Assembly (NCBI GenBank): GCA_026991575.1
Contig: JALXBF010000027.1
Coordinates: 1-64,000 of the forward strand
Source of the DNA: Planctomycetota bacterium
Lineage (GTDB): Bacteria > Planctomycetota > Planctomycetia > JALXBF01
Direction: 5' to 3'
Length of the DNA stretch: 64,000 nt
The notes under the pieces were generated by a model. It made no database searches. It was not told the DNA's origin and saw only the letters and a list, made by a program, of their open reading frames with translations. The stretch's first letter is position 1, and each line of letters starts with the position of its first letter. The translations under genes and the position numbers were made by a program. Of this stretch, positions 19,162 through 58,095 are shown in pieces.

Positions 19162-19190
19162 TTGCCATGTGCCGCAACAATGCGTATAAT
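19162..19190 (+). promoter_or_regulatory. Sigma70-type promoter of the IS1634 transposase
   Basis: TTGCCA-N17-TATAAT. Confidence 0.7.
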
Positions 19191-19217
19191 CCAGCGTGGG
19201 TGCGATTGGAGACATCT

Positions 19218-20969
19218 ATGTACGTGGACAGAGTTAAGAAGCGAGTCGGCGACAAAGTCTACTGCTCCGTCCTGATCCGCGAGAGCTACCGGGACGAGAG
19301 CGGAAAAGTCCAGCACCGCACCCTTGCCACCCTGACCAAACTGCCCCCACCGGTCATCGACTTGGTCGAGCGGTACCTGAAGGGGGAGCTGCAGCTGGTT
19401 GACAATGGCGTCATCGTGATTCAGTACAGCCTGCCCCACGGCCACGTGCTGGCCGTGCTGGGGACCATCCGGAAGCTGGGTTTGGCGAAGCTGATGGATC
19501 CGCGGCCATCACGGCAACGCAAGCTCGTCGTGGCGATGATCTGCGGGCAGATTCTGTGGGGGAGTTCGAAGCTAGCGTTGGCGCGGAGGCTTTCTGAGGA
19601 GAGTGCGTGCAGCACGTTGGGCCTGGAGCTGCGGCTGGGGAAAGTGAGTCGTGACGAGCTGTACCGGGCGATGGACTGGCTGCTGCGTCGCCAGGAGAAG
19701 ATCCAGCAGGGGCTGGCAGCCAGGCATCTGAAAGGTCAGACACTGCTGCTTTACGACGTAACCAGTGCGTACTACACGGGTCGGGAGTCGGAGTTGGTGC
19801 GGTACGGCTACAACCGGGACGGGAAGAGAAGGCACCCACAGATTGTGTACGGATTGCTGTGCGATCGATCGGGGTGTCCGATCGCGGTGGAGGTGTTTGC
19901 GGGGAACACGGCGGATCCGACGACGCTGTCGTCGCAGATAGAGCGGATCCGGGAGCGATTTGGGATCGAGCGGGTGGTGTTGGTGGGGGATCGCGGGCTG
20001 ATCACCAGTCGACGGATCGAAGAGGAACTCCGGGACGTGGAGGGGCTGGATTGGCTGACTGCGTTGCGTGCCGATACGATCCGGAAGCTGGCCCGGCAGG
20101 GCAGGATTGAGCGTTCGCTGTTTGACGAGAAAGACCTGGCGGAGATCCGCTCACCGGATTTTCCGGGGGAGCGATTGATTGTGTGTCGCAATCCGTTTCT
20201 GGCCGATGAGCGTGCGCGGAAGCGGGAGGAATTGCTGAAGCGTACGGAACGTGACCTGGAACGGATTGCGGCGGCGACCCGTCGGTCACGGCGTCCGCTG
20301 CGTGACCGGATGAAGATCGTGGAGCGGGTCGGACGAGTGCTGGGGCGAAGCAAAGTGGCGAAGCACTTCTGTTGGGAGATTACCGAGGAGGGGGTGCTCC
20401 GCTACTGGCGTAACGAGGCATCGATCGAGGCGGAAGCTGCTCTGGATGGCATCTACGTGATTCGCACGTCCGTACCCGAAGAGAAGCTGGACGCCCCGGA
20501 GGCGGTGGCTGCGTACAAGCAACTGAGTCGGGTGGAGTGGGCGTTCCGCGCGATGAAAACCGTTTTGGACGTGCGTCCGATCCGGCATTGGCGTTCGCCG
20601 CGGATTCGGGCCCACGTGTTCCTGTGCATGCTGGCCTACTACGTACGCTGGCACATGGAGCAAGCGTGGGCGCCGTTGTTGTTCGTGGATCACGAACGTC
20701 AACAGGACGAATCGCAGCGTCGCAGCGTAGTGGATCGTGCACCACGTTCGGAGGCGGCACGCAAGAAGGAGGCACGTGGTCGCACAGTGGATGGGCAGCC
20801 GGTTCATTGCTTCCGGACGCTACTGGACCATCTTGCAACTCTGTGCCGCAACCGCGTGCAGGCAGGTGAGAATCCGGAGCACAGTTTCTGGTTGGACACC
20901 TCGCCAACGCCTCTCCAGGCGAAAGCCCTCCAGCTCCTTGGCATCCGCACCACCACCCCTAAACGCTGA
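19218..20969 (+). CDS. IS1634-family DDE transposase
   Basis: LIRESYR, LYDVTSAY, GYNRDGKR, VGDRGL, VEWAFRAMK, RIRAHVFLCMLAY. Confidence 0.92.
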   Translation: MYVDRVKKRVGDKVYCSVLIRESYRDESGKVQHRTLATLTKLPPPVIDLVERYLKGELQLVDNGVIVIQYSLPHGHVLAVLGTIRKLGLAKLMDPRPSRQRKLVVAMICGQILWGSSKLALARRLSEESACSTLGLELRLGKVSRDELYRAMDWLLRRQEKIQQGLAARHLKGQTLLLYDVTSAYYTGRESELVRYGYNRDGKRRHPQIVYGLLCDRSGCPIAVEVFAGNTADPTTLSSQIERIRERFGIERVVLVGDRGLITSRRIEEELRDVEGLDWLTALRADTIRKLARQGRIERSLFDEKDLAEIRSPDFPGERLIVCRNPFLADERARKREELLKRTERDLERIAAATRRSRRPLRDRMKIVERVGRVLGRSKVAKHFCWEITEEGVLRYWRNEASIEAEAALDGIYVIRTSVPEEKLDAPEAVAAYKQLSRVEWAFRAMKTVLDVRPIRHWRSPRIRAHVFLCMLAYYVRWHMEQAWAPLLFVDHERQQDESQRRSVVDRAPRSEAARKKEARGRTVDGQPVHCFRTLLDHLATLCRNRVQAGENPEHSFWLDTSPTPLQAKALQLLGIRTTTPKR

Positions 20970-22798
20970 CCGGTAGCCAGAAACACACCGCCAGATTCGC
21001 CATAACCCATTGACGCGACTTGTCATGTCGCCCACCCTCTGCGAAAGTATGGCCTAAAAACCCTGTACAACAGGACGATCGCCAGCTCGCTGGGACTGCG
21101 GTACTTCCGGCCCAGGGCTCCGCATAGGTCCTTGGGCAGGTACAAAGCCACGGCAAGCGGTAAGGCAAGCTTGCGGGTGGTCCAGGGCACAGGTACCAGA
21201 AGGGCCAACACGATCCAGCGGTGCCCGTAGACGGTTACCGTGTGTGACTGCGAAGAGCGGACCCCGTCGCGATGGCGTCCCTTGCCCCAAACATGTTTGC
21301 CGCGGTGTTCTACGGTCGTGTCATCCAGAACAAGCTCGAGCACACCCACCTTGGCCCGGAACGTCTTGACCAGCTGCCTGGCCAAGACGCCGCCCACCAC
21401 CCATAACTTCCACGGAGCCTCCGACAGGAACCGGCAAAAGTTGCAGAGGTGCAAGTCAGCGATCGGCTCGATGGTCCGGACGATGTTTGCCACCGTGCGT
21501 CGTCCGTTGCATACAATAGCACCGAGCAGCAGGAAGATGAACCGACGGAACGACCGCTCGGTGAAGGCAACCGCGAAGGGCTCAACGACGCTGACGAGCG
21601 AGTTGCTGAGGCGCATCTTTGCCCTCCCTGGCTGGTGGTTTCGGTTTTGTCACCGAGGCCCAGGTGGCCTCACTCACAGTGAATCCTACCGCCAGGGAGG
21701 TTTTTTGTCCCCCTCTGCTGCCCCAAGAACTGGCTGCCTCAGCCCCTACCACGCCCACGCCGGATGACAAAAACCGCAAAAGTCGAGCTAAACGACTTCC
21801 CTTGTGTCGTACGCAGTCACAACGTCCGATGAGCGTGGTTTCCTTTGCCATGGATCGCGGCGAAAGCGTATGGTGTTAGAACGTGATCGGTGTGAAAAGT
21901 ACCTCTTGGCACGTGCCATAAGGCTTGCCATGTTATCCTGAGAGTGCAAAACGGTCACTTCATTGTGGAAGGCCTGCCACTCCCTTTCGACCGGGTTCGC
22001 ATTCGGACAGAACGGTGGCAAGAACCAAGACTTGAATCCAACCGGCTTCCGAGCAAGGTACATTTGCACCGGCTTCGATTTGTGGATCGCAGCATTGTCC
22101 AGCACAATGTGGATCCGGCGCTTGTCCGCACACACCCGGTCCGAACGTTTCAGCAGCGATAGAAACAAGTCACTGTTCTTCCGTGCTCGCCACGTGGCAA
22201 TCAGCCGCCGAGTGCCATGCTCCAACGCCAACGCACCATAGGCCCGTTGGTCCGTACCAGGCGTCCGCACCCGACGCCGATGACCACGCAGACACCAGTC
22301 GTAGCCCATCTTCGGATTCAGATGCACCTCACTCTCATCAGCAAACACCACCACTTCGTCCGGTCCCAGCCGCCGCACTTGCTCGGCAATGTACCGTAAC
22401 CGGCGTACTGCACGCTCCTTAGGCCATGGACTCTCAACGTATGGCCGAGCACGGAGCCACCGAATGCCAAGCTCCCGCAAGTAACGGCACATCGTCGACA
22501 CAGACAACCGCAATCCCATGCGGTCCTCTACCAGACGCACCAGCCGCTGCAGCGTCCAGTGGTTCCACCCGTAGCCGAACGCACTCGGCTCCAAGCGCAC
22601 CGCCCTCCTCAGCAGCTCCGCCAGCTCGGGCGTCAGGTGCGGTGGTCCTTTCCTCCGAAAACGAGCATCGGACAACGCCTCCAGACCGCTCTCGATGAAC
22701 CGCTGCGTCGCCACCCGTACAAAACGGTCACTGCACCTCAGTCGGCGTGCCGCTGCCCGGCACTTCTGATCTTGCATACAATACTTGATTGCCCGGGC

Positions 22799-24094
22799 CA
22801 CGGCTGACGCACTTGGACTGGGGTAGTGAGGCTCTGGTCGGAGGTTGCATTGGGGAGGAGGCCGTGGCAAACTGTCTGCGCTTGAGGAGTGCAGGCCCGA
22901 GGATAACGGAGGAATGTCATGGCCCGGACGAAGAGGATTCCCCTGGTGGAGTATTTGTCAAGGGTGCCTGACCGACGGCGGCAGTGTGCGAACCTACGCC
23001 ATCCGCTGGTGAGCGTCCTTGTGCTGGCGTTGTGTGGGATCCTGTGTGGGGCCAGGAGTTTTCGGGCGATTGAGGCGTTCTGCCGTAAGAACGAGGAGTT
23101 TTATCGCGAGTGGCTGGACTTGCCGCATGGGATTCCGTCGCACGACACGTTTGCCCGGGCGTTTCAGGTGGTGGACCCTGAGGAGGTGATTGGGGCGTTG
23201 ACGGAGTGGCTTTCGGATTTGCGTGCCCGTCGTGGGGAGGGCGCTCGGCCGTTGGTGGCGATAGACGGGAAGGCGTTGCGAGGGACGCAGCGTGGGCGGT
23301 CTGGGGGAGCGGTGCTGCAGGTGGTCACGGCGTGGGCCACGGAGGCGGGGCTGGTCTTGGCCCAGGTCGGGTCGGAACCGGACACGAACGAGACGGCGGT
23401 GATTCCGCATCTGATTGATTTGCTTGAACTAAAGGGTGCCATCGTGACGATCGACGCGGCTGGCTGCCACGCGCACATTGCAGAGGCGATTGTGGCGAAG
23501 GGCGGGGACTACGTGCTGGCGTTGAAGGGCAACCAACCGACGCTTCACCAGAAGGTGCAGGACTATTTTGTGGCCATGGGGGAAAGTGGGGAGCTGTCCC
23601 GGCTCCCGAGCTACTCGGAGGAGGAGCGTGGGCATGGCCGTCAGGAGACTCGCTGCACGACGGTGGCGCCCGCTCCGGCGGAGATTCGTGCGCTGCCTGG
23701 CTGGGAGAGCATCAGGACGATCGTACTAGTGACAACCGAGACGATTCATCTGTCGTCTGGGCGTAGGACAGAGCAGGTACGTTACTACGTATCCAGCGCC
23801 GAGCCGGATGCTGAGCTCCATGCGAAGGTGATTCGAAACCACTGGTCGATCGAGAACCAGCTGCACTGGGTTTTGGATGTTTCGTTTCGCGAGGACCAGA
23901 TGCGCATTCGCCATCTCGTGTCGGCACAGAACATGGCGTTGGTACACCGATTAGCGCTATCCTTACTCAGAGGTGCCATCGGCCCCGAGGAAAGCATTGA
24001 CTCGGTTCGCTTGCGACTCGCGTCCAACCCGAACGATCTGCTAGAACTGCTCTGTACGGGCTCCCTGCCCACGATTTGAAGTGCGTCAGCCGTG
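22799..24094 (+). mobile_element. ISAs1-family element, apparently intact
   Basis: 16-bp perfect IR cacggctgacgcactt; 10-bp TSD ttgcccgggc (22789-22798, 24095-24104). Confidence 0.93.
22919..24079 (+). CDS. ISAs1 (H-repeat) transposase
   Basis: PSHDTF, AIDGKALRG, VTIDAAGC, LKGNQPTL, HWSIENQLHWVLDV. Confidence 0.95.
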   Translation: MARTKRIPLVEYLSRVPDRRRQCANLRHPLVSVLVLALCGILCGARSFRAIEAFCRKNEEFYREWLDLPHGIPSHDTFARAFQVVDPEEVIGALTEWLSDLRARRGEGARPLVAIDGKALRGTQRGRSGGAVLQVVTAWATEAGLVLAQVGSEPDTNETAVIPHLIDLLELKGAIVTIDAAGCHAHIAEAIVAKGGDYVLALKGNQPTLHQKVQDYFVAMGESGELSRLPSYSEEERGHGRQETRCTTVAPAPAEIRALPGWESIRTIVLVTTETIHLSSGRRTEQVRYYVSSAEPDAELHAKVIRNHWSIENQLHWVLDVSFREDQMRIRHLVSAQNMALVHRLALSLLRGAIGPEESIDSVRLRLASNPNDLLELLCTGSLPTI

Positions 24095-25107: not shown

Positions 25108-26739
25108 GTAACCGCTAACGGGGCGCAGACGGGTGGCGCGGGGCGAGGATCGAGGTGAGGTTGAGCGGCGCAGGTAATGCTTGATGAGTGTTGATAGATA
25201 TAGAGGTAGTCAGTGGCGTCAGGTGGCAGGTTCGGGAAGCAGGCGGGGAGGCTGTCTTCCTTGGCGATAGGCTAGCAGTGCTTCGGTGAGGAAGGTTCGG
25301 ATACAGCGTCCAATTTGTCCGCACGTCTCGGCGATGATCAGCAGCCGTTCCGTGCAGCGAGCACCAGATTCGGTGTCATTGCCGAAGCTGATCTTCCGCC
25401 AGATCACCGGTGGCCGCAGGGCCCGCTCGGCCGCGTTGTTGGTTGGCTCAACGCCCTCGTGGTACAGGAACACCCACAACGACGGCTCGTGCCGCAGCAA
25501 GAAGCGGCACGTCGCCGCTAGCTTCGGACACTTCAGCCTTGCCCCCTGCTGAAGCAGGTCTCTGATCCGCCACCGTGCGTGCTTCAGGATCGAGTCCCGC
25601 ATGGTGCCACGCGTGATCTCCCCACGACACATCCGGGCATGCTGCAAGCACACAAAGTCCAGGTTGTTCAGCAGAAGCGCCCCACTCATGCACTCCTCCC
25701 TCACCGTTCCAGCATCGCCTTTGCCTGCCGCTGCTCGTGCGCCAGGCACAGCTGACGACGACGGGGCCTCGTCCTGCCGTACGCCGAATACCCGTCCGTG
25801 TGCACAATCGCCCGTGTCTCCGGCCGCAAAGCTGGTTCGCCACCGCCCGCGATCGGTTCCGGCGAATCAGGCAGTACGTCACCCTGTCCGTCACCGCCAC
25901 CCAAAGCCATGTCCCCTTCTTCTGCACGCGCCAACTCGTCTTGTCGGCATGCACCACCGACGCCGACCGCACCACCTAGCCAATCTGCTCATGCGGCTCC
26001 GCCAACGCTTGTGCCGCCACCGTCACACACGCTGACACCTGCCCCGGCGACACCCTGATCCCCAAGCACTGCTCGAAAACACGGTGCATCCGTCGTAGCG
26101 GTAGGATGTAAAGCCCCAGCTGAGCAACAAGACTCATCAGACGAGGACCGAACGCAGTCGGCTTGGCCGCAGCCACTTCCCCACCGTCACGCAGTGACAC
26201 CGTGGACGCACCAGGCAGTGGACTTGGTAATCGATACGGAATCCCTGGGCTCCGTGACCTCCGTTGCCCGGTACCGCTTCGGTCTCGGATCCTCTCCCCA
26301 CGCCCCCCGAAGCACGCTCGGCATCCAGGGCTCACCGAGCGACAACTTGTTCAGGCTTCAACCATGTCCTGCTGCGCACGTACTGCCTCGACCGCATCGG
26401 CGTAGCGCTAGGCGCCTTCTCAAACCCGCTTAACTGCTGATCGCGCTGCGGGCGACCGGGGCCGGTCAACTCGGTCACGGCCCGTCAGCACCTTCTATTC
26501 ACGGTTCTCGCCAATCCGACGACGGCGCTGCGATGAGTCCCGAGAGCTGCGCCTCAACTGGACTTCCAAATCCTGAACACGCCGTTCTAGCTGACGGATC
26601 CTATCCATGTGCGCTTTCAGCACCGCCCGTACCACGGCGGCCGCGTCGCGGGACATCTCGTTCCACACCTCGTTCGGCAAGAGTTCCCCTATCATGGTTG
26701 CCTAAGCCTCTCTACGAGCCTCGCCTCGTAAACGGTCAC
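25108..26739 (-). mobile_element. Degenerate IS66-family element (transposase pseudogene, several frameshifts)
   Basis: Ends gtaaccgctaac / gtaaacggtcac; fragments HADKTSWRV, QLCLAH, EPTNNAAERALRPPVIWRKISFG in different frames. Confidence 0.85.
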
Positions 26740-27034: not shown

Positions 27035-27500
27035 CGGCGGGTCGGGGGATCGACGTCCCCACCCGCAAGGTTGATTCAATAGCGCGCTGGAGGCAAAAAG
27101 CTTCTTCTGGAGCCGTGCCGCGGGAGGGTTCGCTCGCGGCGGGGTTGTAGGATTTGCTTGGGCGGGCGGTGTGCAACAAGAGATTTCGCTGTCGTCCCGA
27201 CGGGAGCACGATCGCACCTCGCCGACGCCGCGGATCGCGTCCGCGGCGTCGGGGGTTTTTCAAATGGGAAAGAGAAAAACAAAACGGGGTACCGCCCGCG
27301 CTAGCCATCAACAGAGCGGGAGGAGGGCGTAAAGCCCCCCTCCCGCGAGTTCACGGCAGCTGGTGAGTTGAACGGTCCACCGACGCAGACGAAACCAACC
27401 CGCCAACGCGGGCCAGCCCATCGCCCAAACGTAGGCGAAGCGAACCCGCGCAGAGGCGTTCGCGTCGTAGCAGCGGTCCAACAACGCAACCCGCACCGTT
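27035..27500. repeat. ~460-nt multi-hairpin non-coding element (copy 1)
   Basis: Collinear series of hairpins shared with 53757-54215; stems conserved while loops differ. Confidence 0.8.
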
Positions 27501-27989
27501 TGTATCCGACGATCCGCACTCTCTAGCCAGGGGTTCATGCTCAAGCCCGCAAGAAAGTCCCGTCTGCTGAACCAGCCCTTCCGTCCCTGGCTCAGTCGAA
27601 CCGGCCGGCTGACGCTCCGCGTGGGACGCGCCCACAACCCGTGCTCAAGCAGCACAACCGCCAGCACCACCTCCTCTCGCTGGCACCCGTCGGCCGTGGA
27701 TTGGTCCCGGTTGCTCTGCCGTTCGGCTCCTGCGCAGTACTGGGCACCTAGCCGGAGCAACCGCCCGGATGAACGGGATTAGCTCTGTCGGGGGATCGCA
27801 CGTTTTGAAGGTGTGTTGGGACGGAATGCGCGAGGTCCGATTTCCCATGTGGTCATTCGACCGTAACAAGGCGACTACGCAGGATGGCTGGGGACCCTTC
27901 GCACGGCCGTCCAGTACGAGGGGCGTCGCAGCAGCGGCACCGGGCCTGGACGGCCGTGACGACGAAGTCGCCGGGCCAGGGGCTGAGGA

Positions 27990-29195
27990 TCAGCCCCCCA
28001 TTAGCCGGTTCCAGGTTCGTTTGAACCAGCCTTGGCGTTTGGGGGAGCGTTGACGGGACGGCCCTGGGCTGTTCCACCAGCGCCGTACCTTCTTGGAGAA
28101 ATCAACGGCAGCTTCGCCAAGGCGGCTCCCCAGCTCAGAACCGCCGACTGCCCCGGCGATACCGCCAACCACGCCTCCAACCACAGTACCCACCGGGCCG
28201 GCAGCGCTGCCAATAGCCGCGCCGGTATAGGCTCCGACCCACGCTCCGGCCGCCCCGCCCGCGGCGCCTCCGGCCGTACGTGCTCCGAGCTTCACGTGGG
28301 CTTCGACCCGTTGGCTGTGCGAAATCGCCCCGCGCTGGTACTGTTTCTCAATCTGGTAAGCGTCTATACCGTAGGCAGCGACCTCAGTAGCCACGACCAC
28401 AATACCAAGCCCTTTACCCGCTTTACGCGCGACCTTTGTGGCACGCCGCAGCCCCTGCGTGGACCCCAGGGCGTCCTCGGTAGCGGCTACCTTTCCCAAC
28501 CGACGCGGCAACCGTCGAGCCCCTTTGCCCGTTTGTGGCGCGTGCTTCGCGCCGCCTGTCACTTCGCGACGCAGCTGTGCGTAGGGCCGTCCGTATGTTC
28601 CCCTGGGCAGCGGCAGCTTGCCCTCACGCTGGAGGGTATCGAGAATCTCTCGAGCGAGCTGCCGATCGTATCGCGAAGCTTGCTTCACCCGGACCAGCTT
28701 AGGGCGTGCGCCCGCCTTTGGCGTGTGGATTACCTCGACCCGAAGTCTGCCCCGCTCCGCATACTCCAGCACGAGCTGAGCCGCCTTCCGCTCGCGCGCG
28801 GTGGCCTTCGGGCTGCGCAGCATCCGCTTCGCACTCTGGATCGCATGGTCAATGGTTTCCTGACCAGGCCTCAGCCGCCCGGCTCCTCCCTTCGCTTCAA
28901 TGCAGACGACCTCTCGCCTCTTCGCGTCGAACCAGACCTGGTCCCAGCCATGAAGATATTGTTTTTCGGTGTGTTTGAGCAGCGGCTTGTAGCCACGCTG
29001 TTCGCAGTAGAGCTCCGCGCCCTCTTCGCCGATCAGCTCCATCACCTCTGTGGCGACCTGGTGCACCGCAGCTCCCGCCACCGTCGCCACTGTCGCGCCG
29101 TTCAGAGCCGCCTCACACGTCACAGAACCAGCAACAAGCGCCACAACGGCTGCCGCCAACCACCAGACCAGCTTGGCTAGCTTACGTCGTGCCAT
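27990..29195 (-). CDS. Putative secreted PoNe-like PD-(D/E)XK nuclease fused to a C-terminal glycine zipper
   Basis: Signal-like N-terminus; GEEGA...GY...GWDQVWFD...IEAKGG...Q; long GxxxG/AxxxG zipper; basic amphipathic tail; GGAGG RBS; paralog at 54438-55748. Confidence 0.72.
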   Translation of the reverse strand: MARRKLAKLVWWLAAAVVALVAGSVTCEAALNGATVATVAGAAVHQVATEVMELIGEEGAELYCEQRGYKPLLKHTEKQYLHGWDQVWFDAKRREVVCIEAKGGAGRLRPGQETIDHAIQSAKRMLRSPKATARERKAAQLVLEYAERGRLRVEVIHTPKAGARPKLVRVKQASRYDRQLAREILDTLQREGKLPLPRGTYGRPYAQLRREVTGGAKHAPQTGKGARRLPRRLGKVAATEDALGSTQGLRRATKVARKAGKGLGIVVVATEVAAYGIDAYQIEKQYQRGAISHSQRVEAHVKLGARTAGGAAGGAAGAWVGAYTGAAIGSAAGPVGTVVGGVVGGIAGAVGGSELGSRLGEAAVDFSKKVRRWWNSPGPSRQRSPKRQGWFKRTWNRLMGG

Positions 29196-29373
29196 AGCAC
29201 CTCCCCGGACACAGTTACGAACGGACCGATCGACCTCGACAGACCACCGCTCGGAACCACCACCGCTGTGCACATGTCCCGCCGAACCGGACATCGGAAC
29301 CCCTCGTTCAGCCGAGTTCGCTCTCATTGCTTCGGCGTTCACCCCTTCGTTGCAGGTATCCGGCCACGCCCGT

Positions 29374-29742
29374 CTACTCCCGGCCGAAGAACCACTTTTT
29401 CCCCGCGCGGCACGCCTCGTACATGAGCCGCCAGCCTGGCGGCAGCAGGGTGTCCTTCAGTGCCTCCAGGTGTTCCCTCCGCCGCTGAGCCGGCGTGATC
29501 TCGCCACGCCAGTACCTCCACTCAATGGAAAGCACTCGCCACGCGTACGGGCTGGCGTCAGGGCCCGGCACACAGCCGCCCGGGCGATAGCACATCGGCA
29601 CCGCGGTACGCACCACCTTGGCCGCGCTCACGGAGCCATCGGATGACTGCGCTGCGACCGGATGGGCGAGCCACCCGACGTTGAGCGTCAATGCCACCAG
29701 CAGAGGTCCTACCGCGTTCGTCAGTGGCTTGGCAATCAGCAT
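29374..29742 (-). CDS. Small secreted protein, partner of the nuclease-zipper gene
   Basis: Signal peptide ending PVAA-Q; GGAGG upstream; conserved paralog at 55932-56294. Confidence 0.75.
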   Translation of the reverse strand: MLIAKPLTNAVGPLLVALTLNVGWLAHPVAAQSSDGSVSAAKVVRTAVPMCYRPGGCVPGPDASPYAWRVLSIEWRYWRGEITPAQRRREHLEALKDTLLPPGWRLMYEACRAGKKWFFGRE

Positions 29743-29873
29743 ACGTTGAGATCCTCCGGCAGTCTGACGGAGACAGTATCGCTCAGTGCTGCACGACGCC
29801 CGAACCATCGCTCGGTTGCTCCCACCTGACAGTGCACGGCGGTCCCGTGTTCCACTCGCACCCTTCTATTACA

Positions 29874-29968
29874 TCTACAGGCTCATTGCCCGATTCCTGA
29901 CAGCGGATCGCACGTCTCAAGCCGACGCCTCTCTTTCCGTACACGCACCGCACCGGCGAGTCCTGACA
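29874..29968 (-). promoter_or_regulatory. Two tandem ECF-sigma-like promoter motifs
   Basis: TGTCAG-N17-CGTGTA and TGTCAG-N17-TGTAGA; same arrangement at 56494-56596. Confidence 0.55.
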
Positions 29969-30206
29969 AAGAGCCATTCCGCTCTTGCCTCGGGTGCCCT
30001 GGAGCAGCTCGGGAGCGGCCCCACTTCCGCGGCTGTCTGTGGGCCAGATCTCTTGTCACTCCGGTGGCTTCCCGAGGCGATCGGGTCCGCACCACGATGA
30101 ACCGCAAGGGCTGGATCCATGGGCCTACGACTCAGTCCCGCCGTCGCGGAAGCGCCCCTCTGTCTGTTCTCTGTCACCGCACGTCGTCCACGCTTTGGTT
30201 GCCTTG

Positions 30207-30458
30207 TTACTCCTCCATGCAATGGACGACCACCGCGGCCACGGCATGCACTGCCGCACTGATCACGGCATAAGCAGCCACCACGGGCCAGGACACCACC
30301 GTTGCTGTTCCGACCTTGATCAATCCCCACAAGATCGTCACGGGAACCATGGTCAGCGCCGCCCCCGACAGGAAGCTCAGCGCCACGCCCCGCACGGCCC
30401 CGTCCACCGCCGCGTCTACGGCTCTTGGTGCTAAGCTGTTACCGTGTTTCATGGCCAT
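30207..30458 (-). CDS. Small hydrophobic membrane protein (83 aa)
   Basis: Ala/Val-rich with 2-3 hydrophobic segments; TGTCAT-N17-CGTTTA upstream (30526-30554). Confidence 0.55.
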   Translation of the reverse strand: MAMKHGNSLAPRAVDAAVDGAVRGVALSFLSGAALTMVPVTILWGLIKVGTATVVSWPVVAAYAVISAAVHAVAAVVVHCMEE

Positions 30459-31530
30459 TCACTCGGCGAAGCACTTGCGGCCTATGATGTCGCCGCTACG
30501 TGTTCGCCTCCTGCTCCTCACTGAGTAAACGGACCACCCGATCAAGTCATGACACCGTCCCGCCGGAGATTCCGCCACTGGTCTCGGTCGGGTAGGAAGA
30601 AGGGCGTGTCTCAGGTCTTGCCGAACACCGTGGCAGTCGGGGCAGCGGCCCGGCCTCGTGCTATCGTCCGGTTGGTGCCGGGTGGACTGCTGGTCACGCG
30701 AGAGAAGCCGGCGCTGCCCCGACCGATCGGGGCAGGAGGCTTCACGCTCCGGCCGGAGCTCAATGGATGGCGCCCACGGTGATCCACGAGTCTTGGCGTG
30801 CCGTGCCGCCGCGGTCGCGGAACGCGGCGGCACGGCCGAGAGAGGAGCTGTATCAATCCGCCGCGCTATTCAATGAAGCTCGAGGTTGGAGCGCGTGAAG
30901 GCCACAGCCACGCGTTTACGCAAGCGGCCCGATTTACCGGCCTCCGGGGCTACCAAATGCTGTACTGACATCGTTTCCAGCCCGGTCCCGCCGGCGCACA
31001 CATCGAGCGGCGTACGGCTTGAGCGGGTGCAAGAGCTGAAGCGCTCCCGTCGTGCGTGTCTGCTCCATGCACCGGGGCCGCCGGGACCACGCTGTGGGCT
31101 CAGTTTGTCCCCAGCGTGGCCCCCGCGCAATGAGCGGAGGGGAGCCGTCGAGACGACCGGCCCGACGGAATGGGGCCCGATCGAGACGATCGGGGGGTAC
31201 TACTGCCGCGCAAGAATAGAAACGTCGCCGCGGGCAGAAGCGTCCAGGTTGCCGCGATGCTGATCTTCCTGGTGTCGCGTTCGTCCTCTGGAGCCGCCGG
31301 AAGCCGTCTCTGGCCCATGCCCCTGGACCTCGGCCCGGTGGCAACGCGGTTCTGTTCCGGCCAAGCCAGCCCGAACGCGCGGGCGGTGCGTCGAGAATCA
31401 GCCGCTTCGTCGCACGTATGCTCTGCCAGCGTGCCGCTTCGGCTCAGCGCCAGTGCCACCACAGCTGGTGCTGCGGTCGTTGCGTGCCGTACGGCACCGC
31501 CCGGGTTCTGCAGGTCGGATCCCACTCAAC

Positions 31531-53756: not shown

Positions 53757-54215
53757 GGGCGGGAGGGGGGTTTCATGTCCCCCTCCCGCAAGGTTCATGG
53801 GCAGCGCCGGCGTATCGCAAGAAGTTTGTTCGTTGCCGAGCCGCGGGCGGGTCAATCCGCCCGCGGCTCGCGTGGTAGCGTTTCTTTGGTCGCGTCGCGT
53901 GCGCAAGTTGGCCTCGCCGACGCCGCGGATGGAGTCCGCGGCGTCGGCGGAGATTTTTCAAATGGCGGGGTGACAAAAAATCTGGTATTGCCCGCGCTAC
54001 CCATCAACTGAGCGGGAGGGGGGCGTAGAGCCCCCCTCCCGCGAGTTCACGGTCGCTGGCGAGTTCAACGCTCCTCCGACGCAGGCGAAACCAACTCCTA
54101 ACGCAGCCGAAACCGACCCGCCTACGTCTGGGCGAGACCAGCGCCCAGACGTAGGCAAAGCGAACCCGCGCGGCGCGTTCGCGTCAGAGCAGCGGTTGAA
54201 CAACGCAACCCGTAC
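53757..54215. repeat. ~460-nt multi-hairpin non-coding element (copy 2)
   Basis: Collinear hairpins matching 27035-27500. Confidence 0.8.
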
Positions 54216-54437
54216 TGCGGAAGTCGAGTTCGGACCAGGCTGGGTGGTGATGGGGACATCGGAACACAGAAACATAGGTAACTACGCCCATCGCCTCCGA
54301 CCGGGGACATCGACTTACACCGCATACGTGGCGACGCCGACTCCGCTTGCAGGGCCGCCCAGGAAGAGGGTGCCACAGCAGTAGCAGCAGGCCTGGACGG
54401 CCGTGAGCACGGAGCCGTGCAGGACAGGGTCTGAGGA

Positions 54438-55748
54438 TCAGTCCCCCGTCAACCAGCCCCAGGCTCGTTTGAGCCAGCTTCGGCGCTTGGGGGGCCGTCG
54501 AGGGGGTAGGCTCGGGCCGCTCCACCAGCGGCGTACCTTGCTGGGCAGTTCGGTCACCGCTTCGCCAAGCCGGCTGCCGATTTCGGAACCGCCGATTGCT
54601 CCGGCGACGCCGCCCACCACTCCTCCAACCACCGTACCCACCGGACCGGCCGCGCTGCCAATGGCCGCGCCGGCAGACGCTCCGGCCCACGCGCCCGCCG
54701 CTCCGCCGGCGGCGCCTCCGGCGGTACGTGCCCCGAGTCTCACGTGGGCTCGCACCCGCTCGCTAGGCGAAATCGCCCGGCGTCGGTACTGCTGCTCGAT
54801 CTGGTAGGCTTCCACTCCGTAGACGGCCACCTCAGCCGCCGCCGCGGCAACTCCCAGCGCCTTACCGGCTCCGCGGGCGACCTCCGTGACGCGTCCCGCT
54901 CGCCGTAGCCCCTTCACCGCCTCCAGCACCTCCTCGCCAGCCACAATCCCTTCCGTCGACCGCGAGCCGCCCCGAACACCTCGATTTACCGCCGCAGCCG
55001 CACCCCGGGCCACGTCACGTGCGTCCTCAGCCGCATCAGCCGCCCGGTCCAAGTACCTCTGGAACTGCCAACCTCCTCTGCCTGTCTGGGAAGCACGCTT
55101 CAGACTGCCGGTCACCTCGCGCCGCATCTGCCGGTAGGGCCGTCCATATGTGCCTCTGGGCAGTGGCAGCTTGTCCTCACGCTGCAGCGTATCGAGAACC
55201 TGTTGCGCAAGTCGCCGCTGGTGCCGCGTAGCCCCCACCTGCCGTAGGACCTTGCGAGCACCACCTGCTCGGGACGTATGGACCACCTCGACCCGAAGTC
55301 TGCCTTGCTCGGCGTACTCTAGCACGAGTTGGGCGGCTTTCCGCTCACGTGCAGTGGCCCTCGGGCTATACAGGATACGCCTCGCGCTGTCGATCGCGTG
55401 CTCGATGGTCTCCTGACCGGGCCTCAGCCGGCCGGCTCCCCCCTTCGCTTCGATGCATACGATCTCTCGCGCTTGCTCGTCGAACCAGACCTGGTCCCAG
55501 CCGTGACGGTACTGCTTTTCAGTGTGCTTCAGCAGTGGCTTGTAGCCTTGCTCGCGGCAGTAGATCTCTGCTCCCTCTTCACCGACCAGTTCCATCTCCT
55601 GAGTCGCGACCTGGTGCACGGCAGCTCCCGCCGCTGTCGCCACCGTCGCGCCGTTCAGAGCAGCCTCACACGTCATGGAACCAGGAACGAGCGCCACAAC
55701 GCCTGCCGCCAACCAGCAGACCAGCTTGAATAGCTTGATTGAGGTCAT
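54438..55748 (-). CDS. Putative secreted PoNe-like nuclease + glycine zipper (paralog 2)
   Basis: GWDQVWFD...IEAKGG, glycine zipper, longer linker than paralog 1; GGAGG RBS. Confidence 0.72.
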   Translation of the reverse strand: MTSIKLFKLVCWLAAGVVALVPGSMTCEAALNGATVATAAGAAVHQVATQEMELVGEEGAEIYCREQGYKPLLKHTEKQYRHGWDQVWFDEQAREIVCIEAKGGAGRLRPGQETIEHAIDSARRILYSPRATARERKAAQLVLEYAEQGRLRVEVVHTSRAGGARKVLRQVGATRHQRRLAQQVLDTLQREDKLPLPRGTYGRPYRQMRREVTGSLKRASQTGRGGWQFQRYLDRAADAAEDARDVARGAAAAVNRGVRGGSRSTEGIVAGEEVLEAVKGLRRAGRVTEVARGAGKALGVAAAAAEVAVYGVEAYQIEQQYRRRAISPSERVRAHVRLGARTAGGAAGGAAGAWAGASAGAAIGSAAGPVGTVVGGVVGGVAGAIGGSEIGSRLGEAVTELPSKVRRWWSGPSLPPRRPPKRRSWLKRAWGWLTGD

Positions 55749-55931: not shown

Positions 55932-56294
55932 CTACCGGCCGAAGAACCACTTTTTCGCTGAACGGTACGCCTTATGCACTGCGCGCCAGCCCGGCGGCAC
56001 CAATGATTCCCGCACCGCCTTCCGGTGCTCTTGCCGCCGCTGGGCCGGTGTCATCTTGCCACGCCAGTACTTCCACTCAATGGAAAGCAGTCGCCAGACG
56101 TAACGGCTCGCGACAGGGCCCGGCACACAGCCAGCCGGACGGTAGGACGCCCGCGCGGCGGTGCCCACCACCTTGGACGTTCGCCCATGGCTAGCGGATG
56201 CCTGAGCTGCCACGGGCTGAGCGAACCATGTAACGCTGAGCGCCAGCCCCACGAGGCCAGGCAGAGCCACGTTCGTTAGCAGTCTGCTACTCAT
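55932..56294 (-). CDS. Small secreted partner protein (paralog 2)
   Basis: Signal peptide; YRPAGCVPGP...LSIEWKYWRG...PPGWR...KKWFFGR conserved with 29374-29742. Confidence 0.75.
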   Translation of the reverse strand: MSSRLLTNVALPGLVGLALSVTWFAQPVAAQASASHGRTSKVVGTAARASYRPAGCVPGPVASRYVWRLLSIEWKYWRGKMTPAQRRQEHRKAVRESLVPPGWRAVHKAYRSAKKWFFGR

Positions 56295-56493: not shown

Positions 56494-56596
56494 TTTACGG
56501 CCCCACCGCTGCATTCCTGACAGCGGATTGCATCTGCCAACACCACAGCCGCTGTGCTCTTTTTGCGTATACGGACGGCCGCGGCAGAATCTGACA
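56494..56596 (-). promoter_or_regulatory. Two tandem ECF-sigma-like promoter motifs
   Basis: TGTCAG-N17-CGTATA and TGTCAG-N17-CGTAAA. Confidence 0.55.
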
Positions 56597-56834: not shown

Positions 56835-58095
56835 GAGTGCCGTTTCAAGCTGAGAAGTTTCCCCTTTTGGGGGGTTGTTGGATCGGGGCGAGTCTCGTTC
56901 GCGCGTTGTCGGGTGCGGGGTTTACCGCACGCAATCGGCCGTTCGCCGTTATGCCATGTCACGTGGCTCTTGATCGCCCCTCCGAGCTGTCCATGGGACC
57001 GATAGTACGATCAGGCAAGGGCGAACTTCTTCAACGCCCCAAAGTGGCACTCGATTCGGTTCAGCCAGGAGGCATTGGTCGGGGTGAAGGAAAAGAGCAT
57101 CTTGTTCGCCTCCGCCCACTCCAGAACCCTTGAACTCAGATGGGGACCGTAGTTGTCCAGCACCACATGCAGAGTCTCCTCCACTGGATAACGACACCGG
57201 CCCCGCTTCAGAAAATCGAGGAATTCATCCGTTCTCTTTCGCTCGTGGAACCAGCCGTCGAGCCGGCCTGTCTCCAGATCGTAAAAGGCCAGCAAGTGCC
57301 GCACCCCGCCGTCGCGGCGATACGTCGCCGGCAGCCGGCCCGGGCGTCGGCTGCCCTCATGCTCCCAGCACATACCAGACCGCGGCGCCAGATTCAGTGG
57401 CCCAAACTCGTCGACACATATCCGCCTTCAGCACGCCTCTCGTACAACCCACCGATCCGGCGGGACTTTTGCACAAATTGCGGATCTTTCGACTCCTTCC
57501 AGGTTTTCGTCCACCTCAAGCGCACACCCGCACGTCTCACGATCTGACGCAACCGCTCCAGACTGATCTCCTCGACAATCCCCTGTTCGATCAGATACTG
57601 CCGCAGCTTCGCCAGGGACCACGGCGTCATCCCGATCAGCTGTTGCGGAGGCGACAGCGCTGTGTCGACGATCCGCTGGATGACTCTGGCGGAAAACTTC
57701 CGCGCCCTGGCCCGTTTCCCCGCACCGGGGTCCCAGTCAATGGCCTTCAATCCTCCTTCATTGAACCGATGAATGATCTTCCGTACCCACTGCACCGTGT
57801 AGCCCACGCCCTGGGCGATCTCCCTTGTGCTCCAACCTTCTGCCGAGAGTAGAATCACGCCGGCGCGTTTGGCCTTGACAGCGTTCCCTCTGGCACGTTT
57901 CATTGAACGGAGTCGCCTTCGCTCAGGCGGGGCAAGCGACGAACACGAACTCTGTACATCCTTGGAGCCTCCACGTTTTCTCCCTTTGACACCCACTGTG
58001 GAGGCTCCTTTTTACGTCATCACCCCCTGTCCCGCAAGCAGGGTCGTCCTCCGCCCCGTCCCGCCAAGGAAACTCTTCTAGTTGAGACCGCACTA
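56835..58095 (-). mobile_element. IS630-family element; transposase frameshifted (~57425) with an internal stop (~57011)
   Basis: Imperfect IRs agtgccgtttcaa / agtgcggtctcaa; HTH ORF 57996->57394, then CVDEFGPL, VLDNYGPH, SWLNRIECHF in another frame. Confidence 0.85.

Follow-up and report, generated by a model that had tools for sequence, protein, structure and literature searches.

The 64,000-nucleotide stretch of contig JALXBF010000027.1 analysed here (the window), from the planctomycete assembly GCA_026991575.1, carries on its minus strand two copies of a two-gene module, in which a gene for a small protein, termed the partner below, is followed by a gene for a large protein with a signal-peptide-like start, a nuclease-like head and a glycine-zipper tail (Table 1). 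The first-pass annotation had described this module as occurring twice, from 29742 to 27990 and from 56294 to 54438, and both copies are indeed found there with homologous products. Specifically, identity is 65% between the two large proteins (284 of 435 aligned positions, E 7e-133) and 57% between the two partners (69 of 121, E 3e-52). Partner and large gene are separated by 178 nt in copy 1 and by 183 nt in copy 2, and a GGAGG-type ribosome-binding site precedes the ATG of both; for the large gene of copy 1 it reads GGAGGTG and lies 4 nt ahead of the ATG. Homologues of the large protein begin at the same hydrophobic N-terminus as the copy-1 start MARRKL. The copy-1 partner has a signal-peptide-like N-terminus that ends ..PVAAQ and a mature part rich in tryptophan and arginine, and its GC content at the three codon positions is 0.65/0.54/0.81.

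Table 1 Features of the two modules and of the DNA around them (positions are those of the window)
Feature	Position	Strand	Remarks
Small partner gene, copy 1	29374..29742	-	122 aa; GGAGGA ribosome-binding site
Large gene, copy 1	27990..29195	-	401 aa from MARRKL; stop codon 27990-27992
Small partner gene, copy 2	55932..56294	-	open reading frame with homology to copy 1
Large gene, copy 2	54438..55748	-	436 aa; homology to copy 1
Signal-peptide-like N-terminus, copy 1	29112..29195	-	residues 1-28: basic MARRKLAK, hydrophobic core, TCEA before ALNG
PD-(D/E)xK nuclease-like head, copy 1	28581..29072	-	residues 42-205
Key residues of the head	E53 29037-29039, D85 28941-28943, E100 28896-28898, K102 28890-28892, Q112 28860-28862	-	
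Variable linker, then conserved helical stretch (..Y..E..Y..G.IS..R..H..)	28284..28580	-	low model confidence
Glycine-zipper region	28110..28283	-	residues ~305-362; predicted helix-turn-helix around conserved P334-x-G
Basic Trp/Arg-rich tail (..KKVRRWWNS..KRQGWFKRTWNRLMGG)	27993..28109	-	in both copies
16-nt block, copy 1	29893..29908	-	~150 nt upstream of partner ATG; candidate regulatory site
16-nt block, copy 2	56513..56528	-	identical to copy-1 block
3' stem-loop, copy 1	27885..27992	-	starts at stop codon; -63.8 kcal/mol, z -4.4
3' stem-loop, copy 2	54330..54440	-	at stop codon; -54.6 kcal/mol, z -3.1
Dispersed repeat, ~300 nt	27200-27510 and 53912-54215 (also 27035-27130)		farther downstream of the modules
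83-aa membrane open reading frame	30207-30458	-	two hydrophobic segments
DDE transposase genes (four)	19167-24079		
IS66-type fragments	25219-26335		
IS630-like transposase	57011-57996		split into two open reading frames

Between the copies, the ratio of non-synonymous to synonymous substitution (dN/dS, Nei-Gojobori) comes to about 0.27 in the large gene and 0.42 in the partner. Both are real genes, which purifying selection has maintained since the duplication. The only other partner sequence known, the metagenome protein P0021, is 77% identical (110 of 142 positions) to the copy-2 partner and thus closer to it than the copy-1 partner is, so that the duplication is older than the split from at least one relative.

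The large protein can be read as a series of parts, and all motifs quoted in the first-pass annotation (IGEEGA, GY, GWDQV, IEAKGG, Q, the glycine zipper and the QGWFKRTWNRLMGG tail) are present in the translation. The signal peptide was judged by a sequence heuristic, namely a hydrophobic stretch and the look of a cleavage site; A-x-A-Q-type sites occur in many homologues. Among 145 family representatives (P0022-P0166, of 150 listed), which form the sample for the family-wide counts given here, 117 have a hydrophobic stretch of at least 10 residues within the first 80 aa, and 96 carry GxxxGxxxG within the last 160 aa. The signal-peptide-like start and the zipper tail that the annotation had proposed for this protein are therefore features of its family. 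The linker differs among homologues in both length and sequence, and its residues 216-269 fall below 50 in the predicted local distance difference test (pLDDT) of the full-length model; I291 and R296 are conserved. In the zipper, the homologue alignment shows G313, G340 and G356 to be invariant and P334 nearly so, and short tryptophan-rich tails end many of the homologues. The Pfam family Gly-zipper_Omp (PF13488) scores 21.2 and 21.4 bits for the two copies, below its gathering cut-off of 25 bits, although the GxxxG pattern itself is present in the tail. Neither Pfam, NCBIfam nor PADLOC gave a meaningful match to the head, the highest-ranking PADLOC rows being LeoB on the zipper (E 0.008) and Cas1fv (E 0.03). 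Taken as a whole, the sequence describes a modular protein of exported type, in which a signal-peptide-like segment is followed by a nuclease-like head, a predicted disordered linker and a putative C-terminal glycine-zipper hairpin. A lipoprotein alternative, based on the ..GSVTC stretch, was rejected, as the lipobox is non-canonical and the cysteine is absent in homologues.

The AlphaFold2 model of the head is of high confidence (pLDDT 94.6, predicted template modelling score 0.89). Its elements follow the order alpha-beta-beta-beta-alpha-alpha-beta-beta-alpha, with, in domain numbering, a helix at 2-26, strands at 29-32, 45-49 and 54-62, helices at 74-86 and 92-106, and strands at 110-117 and 125-131; the alpha-beta-beta-beta-alpha-beta core of PD-(D/E)xK enzymes is contained in it. 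The catalytic-type residues are placed accordingly, with an E in helix 1, the D just ahead of strand 2, ExK within strand 3 and a Q after strand 3. D, E and K (D44, E59 and K61 in domain numbering) and Q are invariant in 27 aligned sequences, the helix-1 E is near-invariant in the family, and across the 145 representatives K is invariant and D, E and Q are each at least 90% conserved.

Structural searches were made with the head alone, as the full-length model gave mainly helical matches to residues 238-311. With VIA-align, the best match was 3fov (Z 6.7, root-mean-square deviation 3.6, 100 of 102 residues aligned, 21% identity), which is the UPF0102/YraN (PF02021) protein 'UPF0102 protein RPA0323', followed by the Cas4-family protein ACE1 (5.6), a tRNA-splicing endonuclease (5.6), Hjc (5.4), LHK-Exo (5.3) and I-Ssp6803I (5.3). 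The top eight, which include three tRNA-splicing endonuclease entries, are all nucleases or nuclease-fold subunits, at Z 5.0-6.7 against the tool's guide value of Z 8. Foldseek returned lambda exonuclease as its best match (E 6e-3, probability 0.92), and 3fov and the AdnAB nuclease also appear. The assignment of the modelled head to the PD-(D/E)xK fold is supported by its topology together with where the motifs lie and which proteins are matched, and the E...D...ExK...Q signature is intact. The nuclease-fold proposal of the first-pass annotation is supported to this extent: D, ExK and Q are kept across homologues, and the fold matches are nucleases, at Z values below 8. A PDB sequence search with full-length and domain profiles found no relative (best matches to a designed repeat or low-complexity sequence, E >=0.02), the ESM Atlas gave sub-threshold leads only (0.86; a 'restriction endonuclease' cluster with Mrr_cat at 40% is among them), and the head had no PHROG match at E <=0.1, the single row being a Holliday junction resolvase at E 0.24 for copy 2.

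The first-pass annotation had called the head PoNe-like, after the deoxyribonuclease (DNase) toxin domain established experimentally by Jana et al. 2019 (PMC6688995). According to that paper, the PoNe motif is Kx3GExnGIDx2YxnYx3ExK, about 90% of PoNe genes have a PoNi (DUF1911/DUF1910) immunity gene immediately downstream, and fusions of PoNe to Sec signal peptides occur. For profile comparison, the head was represented by a domain-only alignment of 27 sequences (A5), PoNe by 32 PoNe-type CdiA C-terminal domains and YraN by 25 planctomycete sequences. In hhalign, head and PoNe were matched with a probability of 85.8% (E 5.4e-6, 109 columns), and head and YraN with 69% (E 4.4e-5, 63 columns that cover GE..A, D and ExK), as compared with 0.2% for the reversed controls and 0.3% for PoNe against YraN. 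These values support remote homology rather than membership, and the head is by its sequence a distant relative of both PoNe and YraN/UPF0102, nearer to the former, but without the complete PoNe motif. The head family thereby links two groups that do not detect each other directly.

The comparison with PoNe shows both what is common and what differs. Head and PoNe have in common a PD-(D/E)xK core, GE in helix 1, G-x-D-x-x-Y/W before strand 2 and ExK in strand 3, and the hhalign alignment adds QG(S/T)xxW and, later, a VV.T strand. Unlike in PoNe, the head consensus has neither the first K of the motif, which lies four residues ahead of the G, nor its second Y, four residues ahead of the E, the head is N-terminal (residues 42-205 of 401), right after the signal peptide, and the large protein has no delivery domain of a type V, VI or VII secretion system (T5SS, T6SS, T7SS). 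The strings Planctomyc, Pirellul, Gemmata and Thermogutta do not appear in the eight supplementary files available with the PoNe paper (PMC6688995). Pfam matched no true PoNe domain either, so that its blank for the head is no evidence against the relationship. With regard to YraN, 3fov is the best structural match of the head, but PF02021 does not match either large protein at E <=1. YraN proteins are small, cytoplasmic and single-domain, whereas the family of the large protein is of exported type, multi-domain and rare; 25 of 26 related genomes, that of the window among them, carry YraN.

A search with PF08929 (PoNi) gave no match in the 97.8%-complete genome of the window. The same search detected PoNi_C genes in 3 of 401 gammaproteobacterial genomes, which served as a positive control, and at two of the four PoNi loci (L068 and L070) the open reading frame (ORF) just upstream of PoNi has a PoNe-type nuclease C-terminus, with the full published motif at L068 and a more divergent sequence at L070. 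From this domain 31 homologues were gathered, several of which are named filamentous haemagglutinin or VENN pre-toxin. Downstream of the large genes, furthermore, there is no conserved ORF apart from repeat-derived ones, and the annotation's observation that no immunity gene follows the module is thereby borne out.

Its proposal of a two-component system is not. The partner is known from three sequences, the two copies in the window and P0021, and a tblastn search of both partners and of a nearby 83-aa ORF against 28 homologous loci gave nothing at E <=1e-3 (best E 0.014, over 24 residues), which means that the two genes do not co-occur in those other genomes. Clustering of flanking ORFs revealed no family common to more than 3 of 26 loci, and those three are close relatives. 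The lack of a conserved neighbour and of partner homologues indicates that the large gene normally stands alone and that the two-gene module is, as judged from these loci, specific to this lineage.

A word-indexed search for relatives of the large protein found 19. With HMMER, profile A5 retrieved 579 clusters from 1.84 billion representatives at E <=1e-3; the number falls to 300 at <=1e-10 and to 173 at <=1e-30. Among 60 representatives run against Pfam, 57 had no match and three had sub-threshold matches to DUF6861. The head founds an unannotated and unnamed family centred on Planctomycetota. Specifically, when genome loci were collected with a 10-sequence subset of the 19-sequence alignment as query, 23 of the 26 loci were labelled as planctomycete (Thermogutta, Thermoguttaceae, Gemmataceae, Pirellulaceae, Tautonia, Schlesneria, Rhodopirellula, Phycisphaerae and others), and the remaining three came from a Verrucomicrobiota metagenome-assembled genome, Candidatus Halobeggiatoa and bacterium UASB14. 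The closest relative outside the window is the metagenome protein P0004 (549 aa, 54% identity), which has a long N-terminal extension; the head profile matches this protein in two stretches, the second being a partial match within the extension, suggestive of an internal partial duplication.

The C-terminal module, which comprises the conserved helix, the glycine zipper and the tryptophan-rich end, is also found on other proteins of exported type. In genome G265 (L018:1000-2319), it follows a YraN-like PD-(D/E)xK head (hhalign 93.7%). In the genome of the window itself, a third protein on contig C116 (L032:493-1977) combines a signal-peptide-like start with the same zipper module and ends ..YDWVTSWW; its head contains ..IDIYEVD..RRIQAKAG. 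A protein in G081 likewise carries this module behind another head. The heads of the C116 protein and of the G081 protein are unrelated in hhalign to the head studied here, to PoNe or to YraN (probability <=0.7%). The tail furthermore matches glycine-zipper segments of phage tape-measure and tail proteins (phrog_1047, E 4e-13 and 2e-13).

The available data are most compatible with a model, to which we assign a probability of roughly 0.45, in which the large protein is a Sec-exported, membrane-tethered nuclease that acts outside the cytoplasm. Upon export, the protein would cross the inner membrane through Sec and its signal peptide would be cut, the glycine-zipper hairpin would stay behind as a membrane anchor, and a Mg-dependent DNase head would be held by the linker within the periplasm or on the cell surface. 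DNA that reaches the envelope could then be degraded by the head, whether to scavenge it from outside the cell or to keep foreign DNA from entering. Since such an enzyme would never fold in the cytoplasm, no immunity protein would be needed, which would in turn explain why most genomes carry the gene by itself. In this lineage, a small secreted protein rich in tryptophan and arginine would have joined the gene as its partner, with a candidate role as regulator, inhibitor or chaperone in the periplasm, and the pair would then have been duplicated and both copies retained. Given that the C-terminal module carries other heads, it would represent a general anchoring cassette. We favour the tethered nuclease because it accounts for genes that stand alone, for a linker that is long and disordered and for the recurrence of the C-terminal module, as an anchor, on other heads.

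By analogy, cell-wall-anchored streptococcal and other Gram-positive surface nucleases consist of a signal peptide, a nuclease head, a linker and a C-terminal anchor. The layout of the large protein parallels theirs, including the absence of an immunity gene, but their nuclease folds are unrelated and they are held by an LPXTG/sortase anchor, not by a glycine zipper. Among the papers listed by literature searches, none describes an architecture of signal peptide, nuclease head and glycine zipper, and no paper on a glycine zipper in Planctomycetes was found.

Several observations weigh against a tethered nuclease. The nearest characterised relative of the head appears to be a toxin domain, and a minority sub-family (L053:4186-6696, P0102, P0132, P0137, P0151 and P0154) carries the head at the C-terminus of proteins of about 500-840 aa without a zipper, ending like ..F(A/T)(I/M)A(I/L)MER, in the manner of polymorphic toxins. 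Elsewhere, C-terminal glycine-zipper domains are membrane-depolarising toxins, and toxins with such a C-terminus are described in EsxX, the CdiA ionophores and CdzC/CdzD. Both copies lie among transposase genes, and the head is rare and patchy, with matches in 3 of the 401 genomes sampled from the phylum, that of the window included (13 further genomes match the C-terminal module only); an insertion sequence (IS) setting and a patchy distribution fit conflict genes better than housekeeping genes. There is also a mild excess of small membrane ORFs beside the large gene (8 observed and 3.5 expected from background), which is a weak signal, and the zipper helices (312-332 and 334-375) are modelled at low confidence.

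A second model, which we consider unlikely but the most serious competitor, takes the large protein to be a secreted antibacterial toxin that is set free after export or displayed on the surface. Its zipper hairpin would enter the membrane of a rival cell, and the PoNe-like DNase head would be brought in by the hairpin or together with it. Export and, in this lineage, the small secreted partner, as periplasmic immunity protein or chaperone, would protect the producer. The remote homology to PoNe and the reported fusions of PoNe to Sec signal peptides fit this model, but the genome holds no PoNi_C, which the same search detects elsewhere, and no delivery-system domain lies in the protein and no secretion genes beside the module. 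That one C-terminal module bears different heads is likewise expected of a toxin, as is the sub-family in which the head comes last; every described polymorphic toxin, however, has its head and delivery part the other way round. C-terminal glycine-zipper toxins do exist and resemble the large protein in a C-terminal GxxxG/AxxxG run able to form membrane-inserted helices, but in the large protein, unlike in EsxX, CdiA and Cdz, the zipper comes after an enzyme head on a Sec-type precursor, and no route is known by which a zipper hairpin could move a folded 160-aa domain across a membrane. The Cdz bacteriocins, moreover, are small peptides with an adjacent type I secretion system (T1SS) and immunity, unlike a 401-436-aa protein with an enzyme head. 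Patchy distribution, an IS-rich setting and duplication with divergence are in keeping with a toxin, and so is the excess of small membrane ORFs, but no adjacent gene is conserved in the 26 loci and the partner is confined to this lineage.

A more specific version, which we consider improbable as a whole, turns the usual layout of polymorphic toxins around. In it, a constant C-terminal zipper cassette would insert into membranes and self-deliver interchangeable N-terminal heads, PoNe-like, YraN-like and others. The heads would leave via Sec and enter rivals without a dedicated secretion machine or a classical immunity gene, and the small secreted Trp/Arg-rich protein would act as a periplasmic safeguard in this lineage.

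Even less probable is a model in which the zipper tail is the active part, a pore former or depolariser, and the PD-(D/E)xK head binds, targets or regulates without cleaving DNA. The constancy of the C-terminal module across different heads, the membrane depolarisation by known glycine-zipper toxins and the resemblance to phage tape-measure zippers could be explained in this way, but the PHROG matches may reflect a composition rich in glycine and alanine, 49 of the 145 representatives have no GxxxGxxxG tail, and the invariance or near-invariance of the catalytic-type residues argues for an active enzyme. Finally, it is very unlikely that the module is leftover mobile-element or phage cargo without a function in the cell, as flanking transposase genes and a tape-measure-like tail might suggest, given the dN/dS ratios between the copies, the intact reading frames with ribosome-binding sites, the 579 clusters of the family, the retention of an orthologue of the copy-2 partner in another organism (P0021) and a head without a PHROG match.

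To our knowledge, very little is known about exported nucleases and interbacterial weapons in Planctomycetota. The analysis adds an unnamed family of several hundred clusters with a nuclease fold predicted at high confidence, and it indicates a reusable C-terminal glycine-zipper module on proteins of exported type. Should this module prove to be an anchor, it is a candidate for a new type of signal in sorting or anchoring; as a delivery device, it would represent a new way of delivering a DNase toxin.

The DNA around the modules contains elements of quite different specificity. The same promoter motifs had been noted upstream of both modules, and this stands in part: an identical 16-nt block precedes both, but no sigma-70-like promoter was found in either upstream region, and no sigma-54 promoter was seen by eye in the conserved upstream blocks. 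In the 4.96-Mb genome, exact matches to the 16-nt block occur only at the two modules, and allowing up to two mismatches adds one site, which makes the block a candidate regulatory site common to both.

Downstream, the claim of a common structured element likewise divides into two. The stem-loop directly at the stop codon of the large gene is module-specific and conserved between the copies, and is a candidate terminator or stabiliser. The element of about 300 nt farther away, however, is a dispersed genome repeat, and the suggestion that a downstream element takes the place of immunity is therefore not supported. A genome search gave 59 matches to it in the genome of the window, and blastn gave 51 matches on 31 of 191 contigs, seven of them near full length; the repeat family comprises these seven near-full-length copies and some 45 copies of a core of about 55 nt. 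Four copies on other contigs resemble the element of copy 1 more than the element of copy 2 does. It contains a GC-rich palindrome of 14-17 bp with a run of T residues behind it on the plus strand (27222-27252 and 53914-53950), and looks like a miniature inverted-repeat transposable element (MITE) or a repetitive extragenic palindromic (REP) element. Rfam at gathering thresholds gave no match in the whole window, leaving the repeat without an Rfam family, and ARAGORN found no tRNA or tmRNA there. The left boundary of the region in the first-pass annotation had been set by this repeat.

The 83-aa membrane ORF upstream of copy 1, which had been put forward as a possible third part, lies outside the duplicated unit: its GC content at the three codon positions (0.65/0.49/0.76) is coding-like, and it has neither a counterpart at copy 2 nor a paralogue in the genome. 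Both modules sit in IS-rich DNA with transposase genes on their flanks. The 18 flanking ORFs that were scanned encode transposases, a beta-lactamase-family protein, a CAAX protease, VWA, MerR and TPR proteins and a trypsin-like protease, and include no ABC or HlyD-type genes (T1SS), no T7SS genes and no immunity gene.

At the homologous loci, small ORFs on the same strand with a hydrophobic segment lie within 500 nt of the large gene in 6 of 26 cases and are absent from the other 20. Where such small membrane ORFs are specific to a sub-clade, they are possible lineage-specific partners. Similar ORFs of 63-72 aa with hydrophobic ends lie upstream of the large gene at L043:1233-1451 and L048:2234-2425, and weakly similar ORFs of about 155 aa with an N-terminal membrane segment lie downstream at L046:7167-7628 and L049:7032-7526 (pairwise E 6e-4). 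At L053, where the head is C-terminal, the head-bearing gene is followed, 3 nt past its stop codon, by an ORF of 338 aa whose N-terminus resembles a signal peptide.

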